A DNA stretch of 64,000 nt, from the NCBI GenBank assembly GCA_965227515.1, contig CBDDFZ010000001.1, forward strand, positions 832,001 through 896,000. The letters are read 5' to 3'. Shown here piece after piece: positions 95-23,096 of the stretch. Position 1 is the stretch's first letter; every line of letters begins with the position of its first letter. Origin of the DNA: Alphaproteobacteria bacterium (GTDB lineage Bacteria > Pseudomonadota > Alphaproteobacteria > CALKHQ01). The notes beneath the pieces are model-generated. The model did no database searches, was not told the DNA's origin, and saw only the letters and a program-made list of their open reading frames with translations. The position numbers and the translations under genes were made by a program.

Positions 95-1039
95 TTACGC
101 TGCGGCCGAGGTAGGCAATTGTGCCTGGACCTCGACGTTGTCCGCTTCATCCTCCACCGACTCGTCTAACTTCAGTTGCGCCCGTTTCAGTGACCGCAAG
201 TGGCCATGCAGCGCCTCGGCGTCGTAGCCGTGCATCATCAGCCGGAAGCCGGTCTGCAGGCTGGGCAGCGGCACCAGCGGATGGCGGTTCTTGACCAGCG
301 CCAAGTGGTCGCCGGTGCCGAGAATGCGCGCGACGTAGATCGCGATGGTCTCGTCGAGTTGCAACGAATTGGCCGCGCGCTCGAACCCGCTGCGGCTGAG
401 CAGCAGCAGGTAGAGCGGCGTGTAGAGCTCGATCGCGGTCTGCACGTCGATGAATCGCCACCAGCGCTTCGGCGGCACCTTGAAGTCGAATGCGCCATCG
501 GTGATCGCCGAGAAGTTCACCCGGTCCGCAGGCACGATCTCGCGCTTTTGCGCCTTCAGCCCGGCGTTCAACTCGATGATGAAGTTGTAGAGGTTGAGGT
601 CGTGCTGGACGAAGGTGTTGCCGAGCAGGTCCTCCAGACCGCGCGGGCGCAGCGGGTGGGCCTGGATGTCGACACCCGCCACGTTGTCGCGGATGAAGCC
701 CAGGATCTCGGTGCCGACGTGGAAGTGGCGCAGGATCAGCATATTGGCTTCCGGCGTGCCGAACGCCTTCAGCCCCCAGTAGATCAGCCGGTGCAGCAGG
801 CGCGGTGCCTGCGGCCAGCGCGGCATGATCCAGCGGAACACGTGGATCAGCACGAAGAAGGTCAGGATCAGCGGGCGGACAGCCGGCAGGAACCAGCGCC
901 GGCACCAGCTCGCATTGCCTGAGATCAGCGCGTGCTTGGCCTGTGCGTCGACCGGCAGGCTTTCGTCCAGGGTCAGGGCCAGCCAAGGGTCGGGGTCGGT
1001 GCGGTCGAACCCGGCGATGCCGCTCTCGCGATCAGACAT
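95..1039 (-). CDS. Uncharacterised protein, third gene of the KAS III/diiron operon (possibly DUF6999-like; His/Glu-rich, one N-terminal hydrophobic helix)
   Basis: 314-aa ORF with high-GC codon usage, start overlaps the stop of 1032-1724; motifs RHFH, QHD, LDE, NRHP, MHG..E.LH. Confidence 0.7.
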   Translation of the reverse strand: MSDRESGIAGFDRTDPDPWLALTLDESLPVDAQAKHALISGNASWCRRWFLPAVRPLILTFFVLIHVFRWIMPRWPQAPRLLHRLIYWGLKAFGTPEANMLILRHFHVGTEILGFIRDNVAGVDIQAHPLRPRGLEDLLGNTFVQHDLNLYNFIIELNAGLKAQKREIVPADRVNFSAITDGAFDFKVPPKRWWRFIDVQTAIELYTPLYLLLLSRSGFERAANSLQLDETIAIYVARILGTGDHLALVKNRHPLVPLPSLQTGFRLMMHGYDAEALHGHLRSLKRAQLKLDESVEDEADNVEVQAQLPTSAAA

Positions 1040-1724
1040 TGTCGATCTCCTCCAGCTGCAGCACGTAGAGTCGCGCCGTCACCTTGGCGGTCTTGACCAC
1101 AGCGGCCGCGGTCGCTTCATCGGTCACCGCCTCGCCCAGGGCCGCCTGGAACTCGCCCATGTGGTCGCCGTCGTGGGCGCCATGGTGGAGCAGGAAGCTC
1201 ACCGCATCGTCGCCGAGGCCGAGCTGGTCGCGGATCGCCTCGCCCCACGCCTGTGCCTTGTGCGCGCCCAGCCCCTCGATCACGAACATCGCGCCCAAGA
1301 GGTCGAACGGATCGGGGCGGGAGGCGCGGTGATACATCCAGGCGGACAGCGCCTCGGCCCCGATGTTCTTCGGCGCCGCGCGGATGTCGTCCAGAGCGCC
1401 GCCGACCGCGACGTAGTTGTCCTCCAGCATGCGGAAGTCGCGGTGCTCGGTCAGCGCGTGGCGCAGGAAGCGGGTGCGCAGCGTGCCGCGCACGGGGTCG
1501 ATGTTGCTGGCCGCGCGCGCGATCCAGCCCGCGCCCTCCACCACCTGCTGGCGATGGTTGCGCAGGAACGCCAGATAATCGGCACGCCTCAGCGCGCCGC
1601 GGTTGAGGCGCTCGATCAGCGGCACCCGGTCGAGCGCGGCTTCCATGTCGGCCCAGACCACCGCCAGCCCGCGCATGAGGGCAGGGATCGACGGTGCGGC
1701 GCACTTCTTTTCCATATGAGTCAT
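1032..1724 (-). CDS. Heme-oxygenase-like (iron-containing redox enzyme / HDO) protein
   Basis: All-helical 230 aa with spaced ligand-like motifs VVEG, HALTEHRD, FVIEGLG, HHGAHDGDH. Confidence 0.75.
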   Translation of the reverse strand: MTHMEKKCAAPSIPALMRGLAVVWADMEAALDRVPLIERLNRGALRRADYLAFLRNHRQQVVEGAGWIARAASNIDPVRGTLRTRFLRHALTEHRDFRMLEDNYVAVGGALDDIRAAPKNIGAEALSAWMYHRASRPDPFDLLGAMFVIEGLGAHKAQAWGEAIRDQLGLGDDAVSFLLHHGAHDGDHMGEFQAALGEAVTDEATAAAVVKTAKVTARLYVLQLEEIDNV

Positions 1725-20216: not shown

Positions 20217-21329
20217 TCAGCGGTGGTAGCGGTGGGGTGCGAACGGCAGCCGGACGACCTCGGCCGGCAACGGCTTGCCGCGCACGATGACGTCGACCTC
20301 GGTGCCGACCTTGGCGTGGTCGCTGGCGACGTAGCCCATGGCGACCGGGTGCTCGACCGTGGGGCCGAAGCCGCCGCTGGTCACCTCGCCGATGGCGTTG
20401 CCGGCCTTGTCGTGGATCTCGCTGTGGGCGCGCACCGGCGCGCGGCCGGTGGGCTTCAGCCCGACGCGCTTGCGCGGCGCGCCGTCGGCGATCTGGCGCA
20501 GGATCGTGTCGGCGCCGGGGAAACCGCCTTCTTCGCGCCGCTGCTTGCCGATGGTCCAGGTGAGTGCGGCTTCCACCGGCGTGGTGGTGGTGTCGATGTC
20601 GTTGCCGTAGAGGCAGAGGCCCGCCTCCAGGCGCAGGCTGTCGCGCGCGCCCAGTCCGGCCAGCTCGACCTCCGGCTCGGCCAGCAGCGCCTCGACCACG
20701 CGCACCGCGCCGTCCGCGGCGATCGAGATCTCGTAGCCATCCTCGCCGGTGTAGCCGGAGCGGGTGGCGAAGCACGGCACGCCGGCAATCTCGGCATCGG
20801 CGCAGGTCATGAAGGCCATGTCGCGCAGACCGGGCGCCAGCCGCGCCACCGCGTCCGCCGCCTTCGGGCCCTGTACCGCCACCAGTGCGCGGTCGGGCAG
20901 CGGCGTCACCGTGCAGGTGCCCGCCATCGCCGCCGTCATGTGCTGAATGTCCTCGGCCTTGCGGCTGGCATTGACCACGGCGAAGTAGTGGTCGCCGCGA
21001 TTGGTGACCATCAGGTCGTCCAGGATGCCGCCATTGTCGTCGGTCAGCAGGCAATAGCGCGTGTGCCCGACCTCCAGCCCCTTGATGTCGGCCGGCACCA
21101 GGGTCTCCAGCGCGGTGGCCGCCTTGGCCTGATCGGCCGCGCGAATTTCGACCTGGCCCATGTGCGAGACGTCGAACAGGCCGGCCGCGGTGCGGGTCTG
21201 GCGGTGCTCGGCCATGATGCCGTCGGCGTACTGCAACGGCATGGCATAGCCGGCGAACGGCACCATCTTGGCGCCATGAGCGCGGTGCAGCGCGTCCAGC
21301 GGCGTGGTTTCCAGATTTTCTTCGGTCAA
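20217..21329 (-). CDS. gcvT: Aminomethyltransferase (glycine cleavage T protein)
   Basis: GLFDVSHMG, RSGYTGEDG.E, GLGARDSLRLEAGL.LYG; TTG start at 21329 with GGAGG RBS. Confidence 0.96.
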   Translation of the reverse strand: MTEENLETTPLDALHRAHGAKMVPFAGYAMPLQYADGIMAEHRQTRTAAGLFDVSHMGQVEIRAADQAKAATALETLVPADIKGLEVGHTRYCLLTDDNGGILDDLMVTNRGDHYFAVVNASRKAEDIQHMTAAMAGTCTVTPLPDRALVAVQGPKAADAVARLAPGLRDMAFMTCADAEIAGVPCFATRSGYTGEDGYEISIAADGAVRVVEALLAEPEVELAGLGARDSLRLEAGLCLYGNDIDTTTTPVEAALTWTIGKQRREEGGFPGADTILRQIADGAPRKRVGLKPTGRAPVRAHSEIHDKAGNAIGEVTSGGFGPTVEHPVAMGYVASDHAKVGTEVDVIVRGKPLPAEVVRLPFAPHRYHR

Positions 21330-21387
21330 GGCCGCCCTCCGCACAACAGGTTGGTACGCCACGCCGGCCGTGGCCCGCGCGCATACC

Positions 21388-21596
21388 CCGCTCTGTCGGA
21401 GGACCTGAGAGATTGCCCGCGCCGCCCATCACGATGCCGGTAGCGCAGGTTTCCCCGTCGGTGGACCGGCTTGTGGGCCGGCCGCTTTCCAGAGGTGCCT
21501 CGATCTGCGGTCCGTTGGCCTGAGAGTTTCCGGGGCGGTTGCTCCTTCGGCGCCGGCGCAAGGTGTTACCCTCTCACCGGACTCTCCCACAGACGT
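21388..21596 (-). ncRNA. Tandem glycine riboswitch
   Basis: Minus strand reads GGAGAG..CGCCGAAGGAGCAA..GGAAACTCTCAGG (aptamer 1) and CTCTGGAAAG..CACCGACGGGG..AATCTCTCAGG..GACAGAG (aptamer 2) directly upstream of gcvT. Confidence 0.93.
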
Positions 21597-21614
21597 CAGT
21601 GGCGATGTCTGGTC

Positions 21615-21642
21615 AGACTAACCGGCTGGCGGAGAGTGTCAA
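21615..21642 (-). promoter_or_regulatory. Sigma70-type promoter for the gcv leader
   Basis: TTGACA-N16-TAGTCT on the minus strand just upstream of the riboswitch. Confidence 0.6.
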
Positions 21643-21734
21643 TGCGGCTGCGCCCGTCCGTTGTGTTAGTCTGAGAGGGCTGTGATGCGAGTCGTCTAAA
21701 CGCCCAACGCTCAGGAACTACCACTTAAGAATCA

Positions 21735-22166
21735 ATGGCAATTGCAGAGCACCCACGACCTGGCACAATTCTGTTGTGTGATTTTGATACTGGGTTTCTT
21801 CCTCCCGAGATGGTCAAAAGAAGGCCTGTGGTTGTAATTAGCCCAAAGATATCTGTTCGCGCCCGATTGTGCACAATAGTTCCAATTAGTACTGAGGCGC
21901 CACGACCGCAAATGGCGTATCACTACGAACTTCGCGACCTTGACCCGCCACTCCCTCCGCCGTGGGATGTTGGTCCAAACTGGATCAAAGGCGACATGAT
22001 CTATTCGGTTAGATTCGAGCGACTGGATTTCTTCCGCTACGGAAGGGATGCGAACGGAAAGCGCATTTACCGATACGAGATACTTCCAGAGGAAGATCTA
22101 AAGGCAGTGAGACGTTGCGTCCTCAGTTCCCTTGGCTTAGCCAGCTTGACAAAGCACCTTCCCTAA
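21735..22166 (+). CDS. Orphan PemK/MazF-fold endoribonuclease toxin (YifN-like)
   Basis: P.PG.IL.CDF..GF..PEMVKRRPVVVIS..L.TIVPIST, W.KGDMIYSV.FERL; visibly lower GC than flanks; no antitoxin ORF. Confidence 0.85.
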   Translation: MAIAEHPRPGTILLCDFDTGFLPPEMVKRRPVVVISPKISVRARLCTIVPISTEAPRPQMAYHYELRDLDPPLPPPWDVGPNWIKGDMIYSVRFERLDFFRYGRDANGKRIYRYEILPEEDLKAVRRCVLSSLGLASLTKHLP

Positions 22167-22174
22167 CTCATATC
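22145..22174 (+). promoter_or_regulatory. Putative RpoD promoter overlapping the toxin stop codon
   Basis: CTTGAC-N17-TCATAT, close to the alphaproteobacterial CTTGAC-N17-CTATAT consensus. Confidence 0.6.
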
Positions 22175-22179
22175 TTGAT

Positions 22180-22312
22180 ACGAGTGCTGCTCTCGCCGCA
22201 AGGCGATCAGCGTCTAAGACCCTTCGGGGCACGCCGCGCACCAAGCGACACCAAGCTTTCGCGCGGCGTCGAGCAAGCCGGGCGGCACAAGGACTGTGTC
22301 GCCCTTTTTTTT
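22180..22312 (+). ncRNA. Putative structured small RNA downstream of the PemK toxin (candidate RNA antitoxin)
   Basis: Hairpins TCGCC-GCAA-GGCGA, CCC-TTCG-GGG, ACGCCGCG..CGCGGCGT with CACCAAGC twice in the loop; own promoter and terminator. Confidence 0.55.
22280..22312 (+). terminator. Rho-independent terminator
   Basis: GGGCGGCACA-AGGAC-TGTGTCGCCC followed by T8. Confidence 0.85.
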
Positions 22313-22362
22313 GTTAATGTCGGTGCAAGCATTCTGCCGGTGCCACGCGCCTCCACTCTGGC

Positions 22363-22902
22363 CTACCCGCCACCAAGCCGGTTGTACTGCAGCTCGTCGG
22401 ACGAAAGCTGGAAGCCGACATAGACCGTGTAGCCGCGCCCGCTGTCGACCCCGCCGGGTAGCGGGATCGTCTCGCCCACCACCTCGCGCAGGCCGATGCG
22501 GTTCTCGCCGTCGTCGAACGACACGGTCTGGTCGAACACCTGCTTGCCGATGATGGTCTGGTCCGGCCGCGCCACCGCGACATAGAACTGGATCGCCTGG
22601 CTGTCGGCCGCCATGCCGGTGTTGCGGTCGAACACCATGGTCAGCGCGGTTTCGACGAAGACGTCCTCGTCGGAATAGTCGCAGTCGACCAGCACCTCCA
22701 CGATCTCGCCACGCACCGCGACCTCGTCGGGCGTCGCCACCGCGCCGCCGAACCGGATCAGTTTGGAGGTTTCGGCCACCAGCACCACATCCGGGCAGCC
22801 GATGGTGATCGCGTCGCTCTCCGTCCCGCCGCAGGCCGCCAGTGCCGACGCCGCGGCGGCCATCGCAACGAAAGGTGCGACCTTGCGAACCGCCCGCTGC
22901 AT
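22363..22902 (-). CDS. Alphaproteobacterial lipoprotein of unknown function
   Basis: Lipobox LAAC, CP.V motif, C-terminal VYVGFQLS..ELQYNR; divergent from ispH; start codon uncertain. Confidence 0.75.
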   Translation of the reverse strand: MQRAVRKVAPFVAMAAAASALAACGGTESDAITIGCPDVVLVAETSKLIRFGGAVATPDEVAVRGEIVEVLVDCDYSDEDVFVETALTMVFDRNTGMAADSQAIQFYVAVARPDQTIIGKQVFDQTVSFDDGENRIGLREVVGETIPLPGGVDSGRGYTVYVGFQLSSDELQYNRLGGG

Positions 22903-23096
22903 CGCGGGCTTGCCTTGCCAACGCTGAAACTTCATCTTCCGATCGTCACGACTGGTGTGCCCCGATGGTTGGCGCGGACCCGGCGGTGCGGTGAGTTGCC
23001 CGCGAAGGCGCGGAGTCTAGTTGCCCCGGCGGCTACCTGCAATGGCCCCTGGCAGCAATGAACCGCCGGCCGCAAGCGACGAGAGCAAACGACACG

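Follow-up and report, generated by a model that had tools for sequence, protein, structure and literature searches.

The window examined here, a stretch of 64,000 nucleotides, contains a gene of the PemK/MazF family followed on the same strand by a small structured RNA (Table 1). The original prediction had placed a 143-aa PemK/MazF gene of low G+C content between the gcv side and a lipoprotein gene, and the locus was found to be organized in this way. Upstream of the nuclease gene, gcvT and a pair of glycine-riboswitch aptamers (21391-21494 and 21498-21599) are encoded on the minus strand. On the downstream side, a 190-aa ORF bearing a lipoprotein-type signal runs in the convergent direction. 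The G+C content across the nuclease gene is 0.475-0.53 compared with 0.67-0.73 in the flanks, which marks a low-GC islet. The RNA beside the nuclease gene gave the sole credible covariance-model match in the window, with a runner-up of 8.7 bits (E 0.66), and it was also the sole such match in the 5.5-Mb genome, which contains exactly one RNA and one nuclease gene, adjacent to each other.

Table 1 Features of the nuclease gene and the adjacent RNA (positions refer to the window)
Feature	Position	Strand	Basis
YifN-type PemK/MazF-family endoribonuclease gene, putative toxin	21735..22166	+	143-aa ORF; PF02452 match
-35 box TTGACA, inside codons for Leu-Thr of the nuclease C-terminal tail	22146..22151	+	Sequence; conserved in relatives
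Candidate -10 box CATATC, 17-nt spacer, weak in this copy	22169..22174	+	3 mismatches to TATAAT
Conserved structured small RNA (core ~90 nt + terminator)	22180..22314	+	Covariance-model match, 78 bits, E 4.5e-23
P1 (22186-22189/22208-22211), around internal loop GCUCU/AUC and P1b	22186..22211	+	MFE fold
P1b hairpin (22193-22197/22202-22206), loop GCAA	within 22186..22211	+	MFE fold
Single-stranded linker, near-invariant AAG(A/U)C motif running into P2	22212..22219	+	Alignment A1 and tallies
P2 hairpin, CCC-UUCG-GGG in this copy	22220..22229	+	MFE fold
P3 long stem (22231-22239/22261-22269), encloses P4	22231..22269	+	MFE fold
P4 (22243-22246/22255-22258), 8-nt loop of type GANNNCAA	within 22231..22269	+	MFE fold
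Intrinsic terminator, 10-bp stem (7 G-C pairs) at 22280-22304, then T8	22280..22312	+	Terminator scan

The encoded protein matched PF02452 (PemK_toxin) above the Pfam gathering score (E 9.6e-12, 45.5 bits, cut-off 23.1), and this was the only family matched at E ≤ 1. NCBIfam gave no match and PADLOC contained no model matching the protein at E ≤ 1, while PHROGs returned phrog_15698 (unknown function, E 9e-20) and phrog_1936 (MazF-like growth inhibitor, E 9e-7). A search at E ≤ 1e-3 yielded 200 homologues, and identities are 47-75% for the 120 best ones listed; relatives bear the JGI label 'YifN (PemK superfamily)'. The AF2 model (pLDDT 89.8) found 67 PDB chains in Foldseek at E ≤ 0.001, and the chains listed are MazF-family toxins (MazF, YdcE/EndoA, MoxT) with target-normalized TM scores of 0.67-0.82, so that the predicted fold is the MazF/Kid SH3-like barrel. 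In a profile alignment to 3nfc and 5ck9, R30 falls on R29 of MazF and S52/T53 on the MazF TT (T52), and R30 and S52 are invariant in the 49 sequences aligned. R29 and T52 are the catalytic residues of E. coli MazF. Judged by its predicted structure, the nuclease is a MazF proper and not a ToxN.

The endoribonuclease probably works as a dimer. A homodimer model reached an ipSAE of 0.83 (best control, 0.00), a score that may reflect likeness because MazF dimers have already been solved; 20 of 30 proteins with structures solved as pairs attained the ipSAE mark, as did 1 of 23 solved as single chains. Contacts agreed by at least 91% between runs, and the pLDDT of the partner was at least 88. Relative to classical MazF, the protein is ~30 residues longer and contains a Pro-rich insert, which is conserved, as well as a C-terminal tail. 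This tail overlaps the promoter of the RNA, and the dimer model puts its Leu-Thr at the interface.

The minimum free energy (MFE) of the segment 22167-22316 is -63.8 kcal/mol (z = -3.74), a value equaled by none of 200 shuffled sequences, and the MFE fold agrees with the layout of hairpins that had been proposed from the sequence. The strong terminator with T8 was likewise confirmed. The GCAA and UUCG tetraloops highlighted in the same proposal are real in this copy, but the loop sequences differ among relatives. A duplicated loop sequence, CACCAAGC, is also present as described, but occurs in 0 of 156 other aligned RNAs, and 8-mer repeats other than this one were seen in 18 of the 156, at different places. 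Its suggested role as a binding or decoy cleavage site finds no support, because the duplication is unique to this copy. Apart from a weak 23-nt repeat inside gcvT, TRF detected no tandem array in 21000-23000, and every alignment shows the RNA as one unit. Rfam 15 yielded no family, such as the pemK, abiF, or ToxI motifs named in the original prediction, for 22140-22320 at E ≤ 10; for the RNA of relatives, it yielded none in 10 loci at gathering score and none in 7 divergent loci at E ≤ 0.1.

Relatives of the RNA were aligned from a first set (A2) and from an independent set of viral contigs from IMG/VR (A4). A preset test, namely whether a downstream structure is conserved with covariation among homologues, was strongly positive. 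In a sequence-only MAFFT alignment, compensatory changes were present in all 19 of the 19 base pairs. Pairing was observed in 96.1% (A2) and 94.6% (A4) of the cells, compared with 31-48% when the partner was slid, and the covariation score was 0.79 compared with at most 0.20 in controls; none of 500 shuffles reached the pairing or covariation values. P1 and P1b were paired in 98.8% and 90.5%, respectively, every pair showing compensatory changes. P2 (98.3% paired) had changes on both sides in 3 of 3 pairs around a loop of variable sequence, and all 10 pairs of P3 (96.1%) and P4 (96.7%) were changed on both sides. The terminator stems covary as well (columns 270/289, 268/291, and 273/286).

Three further elements of the RNA are conserved. 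The internal loop of P1 reads GCUCU in 65 and AUC in 77 of 81 RNAs; in the linker ending in AAG(A/U)C, an A is invariant in alignment A1 and G, C, and C are nearly so; and nearly all P4 loop types listed are GANNNCAA in both sets. Mutual information with APC on A2 recovered the helices and the terminator only. This analysis revealed no tertiary contacts, and the leftover correlated columns (91, 159/214, and 232) divide along the two main sequence types, so that their correlation may have a phylogenetic origin. By comparative sequence evidence, the ~130 nt after the nuclease gene are a conserved structured RNA that covaries in ~150 relatives. A small peptide encoded inside the RNA was considered and rejected: the median ATG-ORF has 11-13 codons, and no ATG-ORF exists in 20 of 81 (A2) and 13 of 69 (A4) sequences. 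Two 'protein clusters' over the RNA, comprising 10 and 4 loci, are a product of the conserved RNA sequence itself.

A separate promoter for the RNA, CTTGAC-N17-TCATAT, had also been predicted. Its -35 part is real and conserved among relatives, but the -10 part is weak in this copy, as judged by a stricter promoter scan of 21400-22500 that gave 0 sites. A TTGACA-like -35 box (≤1 mismatch) is located ~40 nt upstream of the RNA in 79 of 81 (A2) and 55 of 67 (A4) distinct upstream regions, compared with only 1-11 of 59-79 regions at four control offsets. Some of the conservation of this box could be due to selection on the protein, whose tail residues Leu-Thr it encodes. The -10 boxes of relatives at the equivalent place are mostly better than CATATC.

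The covariance model matched 82 of 83 first-set sources, each directly 3' of the gene and on the same strand; 74 of these sources were in the model seed and match by construction. The eight matches outside the seed are L012, L038 (with an RNA identical to that of L035), L041, L055, L059, L080, the plasmid L081, and the Vibrio element L083. In the single miss (L058), the sequence stops at the stop codon and has no flank. Among 80 loci of the independent IMG/VR set, the RNA adjoins the gene in 72, two have no flank, and the six others share one 126-aa protein; three of three of these six that were tested with filters off gave a match at the canonical place (16 bits, E ~4e-4). The RNA of the 72 viral loci is situated downstream on the same strand in 65 cases, convergent in two (L144 and L147), and upstream in five (L153, L155, L157, L158, and L170). 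In the upstream layout of L157, L153, L155, and L170, the RNA terminator ends 2-15 nt before the start codon of the nuclease. The order RNA-terminator-toxin is present in 5 of 72 viral loci and absent in the window, where the RNA lies downstream. The E. coli plasmid p5217 carries a convergent RNA copy with its own promoter, and at L106 an additional copy of the RNA lies 460 nt before the gene, although only one nuclease gene was detected. Persistence of the pair in the upstream and convergent layouts points to a partner RNA that acts in trans rather than to a plain 3' UTR. For the distant chromosomal YifN of E. coli, no RNA was detected by the covariance model. There, a consensus-like promoter is present and a short hairpin and terminator follow the stop codon of yifN.

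The predicted lack of an antitoxin ORF was borne out, as no ORF in the list for the window fits this role and clustering of 2025 flanking ORFs from 81 loci identified no conserved protein neighbor. The largest real cluster is an upstream HTH_3 ORF in five loci, and p5217 has an 86-aa ORF upstream; each of these ORFs could encode a protein antitoxin or else a regulator. The module is mobile: it forms a low-GC islet, is present in 0 of 40 relatives searched, and was recorded on plasmids (26 records), in Vibrio integrative elements (11), and in viral IMG/VR stretches (91). Repressors of the S24 (CI/LexA) type make up 13 of 148 upstream neighbors, and the linkage of RNA and gene holds across phyla, plasmids, and prophages. 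In three genomes of the same family, the gcvT flank and the ispH/lipoprotein flank are on separate contigs, and thus an empty site or insertion boundary could not be defined.

In a small clade of three to five loci, the RNA is fused at its 3' side to a circularly permuted tRNA-like domain. The gene order of this extension is a 3' half with CCA, a short spacer, and a 5' half, with the break in the anticodon loop, and a G3:U70 pair in the acceptor stem was recognized by eye in L011, L016, and L043. Two-piece tmRNA and permuted tRNA genes have the same gene order as the extension in these loci, and permuted ssrA genes occur in Alphaproteobacteria. Unlike two-piece tmRNA, the extension has neither a tag reading frame nor pseudoknots. 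An assignment as ssrA was rejected in favor of a permuted tRNA-like domain, as ARAGORN was blank there in 11 loci and no Rfam tmRNA or tRNA matched at gathering score. The RNA might act through tRNA mimicry, or the nuclease might be released depending on how the RNA with its alanine-type extension is charged or processed.

We favor the interpretation, with a probability of roughly 0.55, that the locus encodes a type III-like module for toxin-antitoxin function or abortive infection, whose RNA antitoxin is of a non-repeat type. We infer toxicity, direct RNA binding, neutralization, and the biological role. The two-gene mobile module would consist of the YifN-type MazF/PemK endoribonuclease and a dedicated small RNA of ~105-130 nt with three hairpin units, which are P1/P1b with the conserved internal loop, P2, and P3/P4 with the conserved 8-nt loop. 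This RNA would be made from its own sigma-70-type promoter, whose -35 box lies in the last codons of the nuclease, and would end at the intrinsic terminator. Where the RNA is downstream, as it usually is, transcription of the nuclease gene would continue through the RNA as far as its terminator, so that every toxin message would carry one RNA copy in cis, with the internal promoter supplying an excess. Abundant RNA would bind the nuclease directly and keep it inactive. If the supply of RNA drops, through loss of the element or phage shut-off of host transcription, the nuclease would be freed to cut cellular RNA, resulting in addiction or abortive infection. We see even chances for the wider proposition that the pair represents an undescribed class of RNA antitoxin, in which one non-repetitive structured RNA, transcribed independently, binds directly to a genuine MazF-family nuclease and restrains it. 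Such a class would have been carried through Proteobacteria and further taxa by plasmids, prophage immunity regions, and mini-islets, would act as an addiction or abortive-infection device, would explain part of the 'solo MazF/PemK' genes, and would include one clade with the alanine-type permuted tRNA-like fusion.

Linkage alone fits the RNA as a substrate, cofactor, or sensor equally well, and strict linkage combined with tolerance of rearrangement agrees with such a ribonucleoprotein as well as with an antitoxin. The RNA could be a substrate matured by the nuclease, a cofactor or scaffold that directs or activates it, or a sensor that responds to a signal from a phage or the cell; we regard this as unlikely. 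The conserved single-stranded GCUCU/AUC, AAG(A/U)C, and GANNNCAA resemble sites of protein recognition or cleavage, and the permuted tRNA-like fusion hints at tRNA biology beyond inhibition. However, the MazF active-site residues have been kept, which implies a need for restraint, and no other restraint is encoded nearby. The plasmid and prophage-repressor setting is typical of toxin-antitoxin or exclusion modules, and variation in the RNA falls on hairpin caps rather than on obvious guide segments.

The overlap of the RNA promoter with the end of the ORF is compatible with control of nuclease-gene expression by the RNA, either through type I-like pairing with the mRNA or through promoter or terminator interference at the 3' end. 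Moreover, the upstream layout forces expression of the nuclease to read through the RNA terminator, and the convergent RNA overlaps the 3' end of the gene in p5217, L144, and L147. Nevertheless, we consider this mode of action improbable, since in 65 of the 72 viral loci and in all 82 first-set matches the RNA is on the same strand and has no antisense overlap. Conservation resides in the structure and loops and not in a pairing stretch, and the 5' regions of the nuclease genes, several of which begin with GTG or TTG, are unconserved among relatives. Duplexes of the RNA with its own translation-initiation region outperformed shuffled sequences in only 41 of 78 loci (p = 0.12) and were marginally better than those with the regions of other loci (48 of 78, p = 0.05).

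A regulatory sRNA with targets elsewhere, which merely travels with the gene through the embedded promoter, would also be expected to have its own promoter and terminator, and the second RNA copy of L106 could be read in this sense. We find such independence quite improbable, as the linkage is kept where embedding of the promoter is lost (the upstream and convergent layouts), extends across phyla and kinds of mobile element, and includes the single adjacent pair in the genome studied here. Finally, the view that nothing more than an orphan toxin gene is present, ending in a structured 3' UTR and a terminator whose hairpins arose by chance, as might be supposed from the ready folding of G+C-rich DNA and the blank promoter scan in this copy, is already contradicted by the comparative data (covariation of 19 of 19 pairs in two independent sets, a promoter conserved among relatives, and loci with the RNA upstream of the gene or on the opposite strand) and by the fold z-score.

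If the RNA is indeed the antitoxin, the preferred interpretation would add a new kind of toxin-antitoxin pair and would mean that RNA antitoxins acting on proteins are not confined to ToxN-like families or repeat arrays. It would also define a new RNA family with ~150 members here, 19 covarying pairs, and three conserved motifs, and the conserved promoter in the last codons of the toxin would offer a search rule for more such pairs. With 143 aa and ~110 nt, the protein-RNA pair would be compact enough for structural work and tools. Given the prophage repressors next to the module, an anti-phage role can be tested directly.

Few bacterial toxins have been studied as well as the MazF/PemK nucleases, which are taught as type II, that is, neutralized by a protein. 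As in MazEF and PemIK (Kis-Kid), the toxin of the module described here belongs to this family, has the same fold, is predicted to form a dimer, and carries an Arg and a Ser/Thr that align with the catalytic ones. Unlike these systems, it has no upstream co-transcribed protein of the MazE/PemI type at this locus, and no such neighbor is conserved in the 81 loci. We know of no precedent for a genuine MazF that is inhibited by RNA. The antisense feature of type I systems is missing in the window, where the RNA is on the same strand as the gene and does not overlap it. AbiF-motif RNA lies upstream of the abiF gene, and Rfam 15, which we take to include this motif, gave no match at E ≤ 10 here. 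A report on the AbiF system of Clostridioides difficile describes a phage-borne abortive-infection toxin under RNA-based control (PMC12373285), but the toxin family differs from the MazF/PemK nuclease of this study.

That many toxin genes occur alone, for reasons left unexplained, is a longstanding observation of genomic surveys. According to Makarova et al. 2009 (PMC2701414), solo genes account for more than 50% of the largest toxin and antitoxin families, and the antitoxin function could be provided by a small RNA; that survey names no RNA for MazF-type solos and contains 0 occurrences of YifN. The YifN-type family would be a case of such a solo toxin with an RNA antitoxin. No RNA partner of this family was found described in the literature searched, and supplementary motif lists of RNA-discovery papers could contain the RNA.

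Close parallels are seen with the type III systems (ToxIN, CptIN, and TenpIN), which also combine an endoribonuclease toxin with a non-coding RNA, have no protein antitoxin, and are likewise mobile, patchy, and linked to phages and plasmids. The ToxIN layout is RNA, terminator, and toxin, with expression by read-through, and a layout of this kind is found in the five upstream loci of the present module. Two publications state that the type III RNA binds and inhibits the toxin (PMC8860590, PMC13682666). Type III antitoxins are tandem direct repeats, whereas the RNA described here is a single unit with three hairpins, has its own promoter, and is usually located downstream of the toxin gene. The ends of the RNA here can be explained without the processing by the toxin that is known from type III systems. 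Type III toxins are of the ToxN/AbiQ type, in contrast to the genuine PF02452 MazF/PemK protein of this module, whose Foldseek list is headed by MazF. Because the predicted fold is that of MazF proper and not of ToxN, the analogy to type III would be one of function, without membership in the same family.

The product of the nuclease gene, the putative toxin, matched the Pfam family PemK_toxin with 45.5 bits (cut-off 23.1), and the gene has a G+C content of 0.475–0.53 versus 0.67–0.73 in the flanks. On the minus strand, a glycine riboswitch precedes gcvT-gcvH-gcvP. The toxin-RNA islet lies ~135 nt past the riboswitch 5' end, so that the gcv promoter and the islet occupy one short divergent intergenic region. 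Downstream of the gene, positions 22167–22316 fold with a minimum free energy (MFE) of −63.8 kcal/mol (z = −3.74; equalled by none of 200 shuffles). The original prediction of a low-G+C PemK/MazF-fold gene, followed by a ~130-nt fold and a T8 terminator, was correct, as the ORF, fold, and terminator are all as it stated.

Features of the module and its surroundings in the window, and of related loci
Feature	Location	Strand	Remark
Nuclease ORF, 143 aa	21735–22166	+	ORF list, Pfam PemK_toxin
−35 box TTGACA	22146–22151	+	inside last codons of nuclease gene
Intrinsic terminator, strong	22280–22304, then T8	+	terminator prediction
Tandem glycine riboswitch aptamers	21391–21494 and 21498–21599	−	67 and 39.9 bits
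gcvT	upstream of nuclease gene, opposite strand	−	ORF list
190-aa ORF, lipoprotein-type signal	3' of module		convergent
Permuted tRNA-like domain	L011:3528–3612, L016:3537–3620, L043:3524–3608
Degenerate permuted tRNA-like domain	L018, L041
Second RNA copy	L106:3423–3542		460 nt upstream of gene
Two complete gene-RNA pairs	L119: 793–1363 and 3995–4565		~3 kb apart, one viral contig
p5217 module stretches	L082:90–350 and 855–1199		convergent
p5217 RNAI	L082:1097–1199
yifN-ppiC intergenic stretch	L092:2440–2560

A homology search at E ≤ 1e-3 retrieved 200 proteins, of which the best-scoring 120 span 47–75% identity and are nearly all 139–143 aa long. Labels given by some sources include “YifN (PemK superfamily)” and PemK/MazF family toxin. 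Among 1.84 billion representatives, a profile search found 1124 clusters at E ≤ 1e-3, of which 722 reach E ≤ 1e-10 and 137 reach E ≤ 1e-30. Among the 19 invariant columns of an alignment of 49 sequences are R30 and S52, which in a profile search of PDB sequences align with an Arg and a Thr-Thr of E. coli MazF; we take the aligned Arg and Thr to be the catalytic residues. The AF2 monomer model (pLDDT 89.8) resembles MazF chains of S. aureus, B. subtilis, E. coli, and M. tuberculosis (TM 0.67–0.82, normalised by target), and ToxN was absent among the structural matches listed. A homodimer was predicted with an ipSAE of 0.83 (best control 0.00). Among proteins of solved structure, this mark was attained by 20 of 30 determined as pairs and by 1 of 23 determined as single chains. 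The homodimer runs agree in at least 91% of contacts, with pLDDT at least 88, but MazF dimers have been solved and the prediction may only reflect likeness to them.

One sequence pattern recurs in almost all 170-nt stretches 3' of the stop codon in the 80 GTDB relatives. RNAalifold derived a structure of 19 pairs from a MAFFT alignment of 74 downstream stretches, and all 19 showed compensatory changes. The covariance model of the RNA, R1, matched 82 of 83 sources (the window, the GTDB relatives, one Polaromonas plasmid, and one Vibrio element), each time on the gene's strand and directly 3' of it; 74 of these matches are seed members and eight are not. The sole miss was a relative (L058) whose sequence stops at the stop codon. 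In this first set, 96.1% of the alignment cells pair, compared to 38–48% with partners slid by one to three columns, and the covariation score was 0.787 (slid controls ≤0.199; none of 500 shuffles as high). In an independent set of 80 IMG/VR loci, relatives 37–63% identical and unseen by R1, the RNA adjoins the gene in 72 (E = 3.6e-31 to 0.0012). Here 94.6% of the cells pair versus 31–44% when slid, with a covariation score of 0.793. Two other loci have no flank, and six with one common 126-aa protein were missed under default filters; with filters off, all three tested gave a match at the usual position (16 bits, E ~4e-4). Homologues thus share the conserved, covarying downstream structure that the original prediction had proposed to look for. 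No Rfam 15 family matched the window RNA at E ≤ 10, no Rfam 15 model fits any form searched (window, relatives, and divergent loci), and we regard the RNA as a new RNA family.

Within this RNA, a P1 stem of 3–4 bp surrounds two elements: the variable hairpin P1b and a conserved, asymmetric internal loop with GCUCU (65 of 81 RNAs) on one side and AUC (77 of 81) on the other. The linker terminates in AAG(A/U)C, P2 is a hairpin with a variable loop, and P3 (7–9 bp) surrounds P4 (3–4 bp), which has an 8-nt loop of the type GANNNCAA; the terminator stands 3' of P3/P4. The duplicated CACCAAGC, formerly proposed as a binding or decoy site, has no support in that role, as it is confined to the window copy, where the P4 5' strand happens to resemble the loop plus 3' strand. 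The GNRA and UUCG loops are indeed present in the window copy, but hairpin caps vary among relatives.

In a small alphaproteobacterial clade, a circularly permuted tRNA-like domain, with a terminator after it, stands in place of the RNA terminator. The domain runs from the anticodon-stem 3' strand through the T arm and the acceptor 3' strand with CCA to a 5–6 nt spacer, the acceptor 5' strand, the D arm, and the anticodon-stem 5' strand and loop. The cloverleaf was the MFE structure in three of four folded sequences. Judged by eye, L011, L016, and L043 have a G3:U70 pair in the acceptor stem and differ there by one compensatory pair. ARAGORN and Rfam gave no call at these domains. Among RNA-bearing loci, a T-loop pattern search matched only L011, L016, and L018, with a fourth match (L032) outside the RNA; L041 and L043 were assigned by eye.

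Of the 81 distinct upstream regions in the first set, 79 have a −35 box with at most one mismatch to TTGACA (55 of them exact) ~40 nt 5' of GCUCU, as do 55 of 67 viral-set regions; four control offsets gave 1–11 of 59–79 regions. Spacers measure 17 nt in 59/81 and 52/68 regions, respectively. The central prediction, a conserved structured RNA partner with its own promoter, is borne out. In the window itself, the promoter proposed in the last codons retains its TTGACA, but with a 17-nt spacer the best available −10 box is weak, and a strict scan of 21400–22500 reported no promoter. In the common layout the −35 box is dual-use, also encoding a Leu-Thr in the C-terminal tail of the protein, and protein-level selection could add to its conservation. 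This conserved tail (residues 135–143, Leu-Thr-Lys-His-Leu type) is modelled with lower AF2 confidence (pLDDT 58–81) and placed at the interface of the dimer model. Relatives with the RNA elsewhere than directly downstream tend to be shorter, so the promoter may account for part of the tail's conservation. Promoters of displaced RNAs read TTGACA-N17-TATATT (viral locus L144, convergent), TTGATA-N17-TATAAT (E. coli plasmid p5217, convergent), and TTGAAT-N17-CATACT (viral locus L157, upstream). The module pairs a MazF-type nuclease, its active-site signature intact, with a dedicated structured RNA that has a promoter of its own.

The gene-RNA pair survives REARRANGEMENT. Of the 72 viral loci, 65 have the RNA downstream and five have it upstream, in each case on the gene's strand, and two have it convergent. 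In the upstream layout, as judged from four of the five loci, the RNA terminator stops 2–15 nt 5' of the start codon, so that the nuclease would be made only by read-through; in ToxIN, the toxin is expressed by read-through past the RNA terminator. One viral contig (L119) carries two complete pairs, and in L106 an extra RNA copy, beside which no second nuclease gene was detected, places RNA on both sides of the gene. Divergent RNA forms accompany more distant relatives on a Kingella plasmid (R1 27.8 bits), Xanthomonas pCuR (13 bits), and p5217 (7.9 bits, opposite strand); in the p5217 form, the promoter is clear and the 5' motifs can still be recognised. The ColE1-type p5217 encodes a 169-aa family member, within whose last codons the RNA terminator falls; an 86-aa ORF upstream has sub-threshold HTH matches only. 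At the E. coli chromosomal yifN (29% identity), R1 detected no RNA. The stop codon of YifN (149 aa) overlaps TTGACA-N17-GATAAT, followed by a short hairpin-rich stretch and a terminator before ppiC. No ncRNA annotation appeared there among the matches listed. The region, which 4016 of 5426 complete E. coli genomes contain, may represent a partner RNA that is reduced or unrelated.

Clustering of 2025 flanking ORFs of at least 40 aa from 81 loci revealed no conserved neighbour. The largest real cluster was an 83-aa HTH_3 (XRE-type) ORF close to the nuclease gene at five loci (L050, L054, L055, L059, and L062): four have it upstream on the gene's strand, and one has it downstream on the opposite strand. 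All five retain the RNA, and the ORF could act as a regulator or add a second, protein-based control layer. Nuclease-gene 5' regions were unrelated to one another across relatives, and several genes start with GTG or TTG. Linkage of gene and RNA is obligate and independent of gene order, with no protein partner.

The distribution of the module is mobile and patchy. The source genome has one gene and one RNA, none of 40 sampled relatives encodes the protein, and family members were found in 26 plasmid records as well as on 91 IMG/VR stretches. Eleven Vibrio cyclitrophicus integrative elements (Vibrio “phage” 10N.239.311.A09_PE001 and ten sister records, 13–15 kb) carry the module at their very end, as the last gene beside cro-like, S24-type, and excisionase genes; in the former, the RNA lies ~115 nt past the stop codon, near the element end. 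Upstream neighbour ORFs (n = 148) included 13 Peptidase_S24 and 11 HTH_3 proteins of the CI/LexA type, and prophages often keep exclusion genes beside such repressors.

The simplest and best-supported reading, with a probability of roughly 0.55, is a toxin-antitoxin pair in which the structured RNA would act directly on the nuclease protein as antitoxin, in type III fashion. The single-stranded motifs conserved in the RNA could serve as contact or pseudo-substrate sites. A ribonucleoprotein, with the RNA as substrate, cofactor, or sensor of the nuclease, would share the tight linkage, and we consider it possible but rather unlikely. Control of nuclease expression rather than of the protein appears improbable: the RNA pairs with its own translation-initiation region no better than shuffled sequences (41/78, p = 0.12), and the nuclease-gene 5' regions lack conservation. 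That an independent small RNA hitch-hikes with the gene is very doubtful beside a linkage kept in every gene order, and chance or a plain 3' UTR can practically be dismissed next to the covariation in both sets. A type I system was rejected, as the RNA is on the gene's strand in the window and shows no excess complementarity to the initiation region.

Passages of Makarova et al. 2009 (PMC2701414) describe solo toxins as abundant and suggest small RNAs as possible antitoxins. Searches of freely accessible main texts turned up no RNA partner described for the MazF/PemK (YifN-type) family, and a prior description is possible. As a toxin-antitoxin pair, the module would work like type III systems, but its toxin falls outside the known type III toxin families in Pfam, defence-model, and fold searches, and its RNA is without the repeat array that is a defining feature of these families. 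It likewise differs from type II, which is defined by a protein antitoxin that the module does not have, whereas its toxin belongs, as in type II, to the MazF/PemK family.
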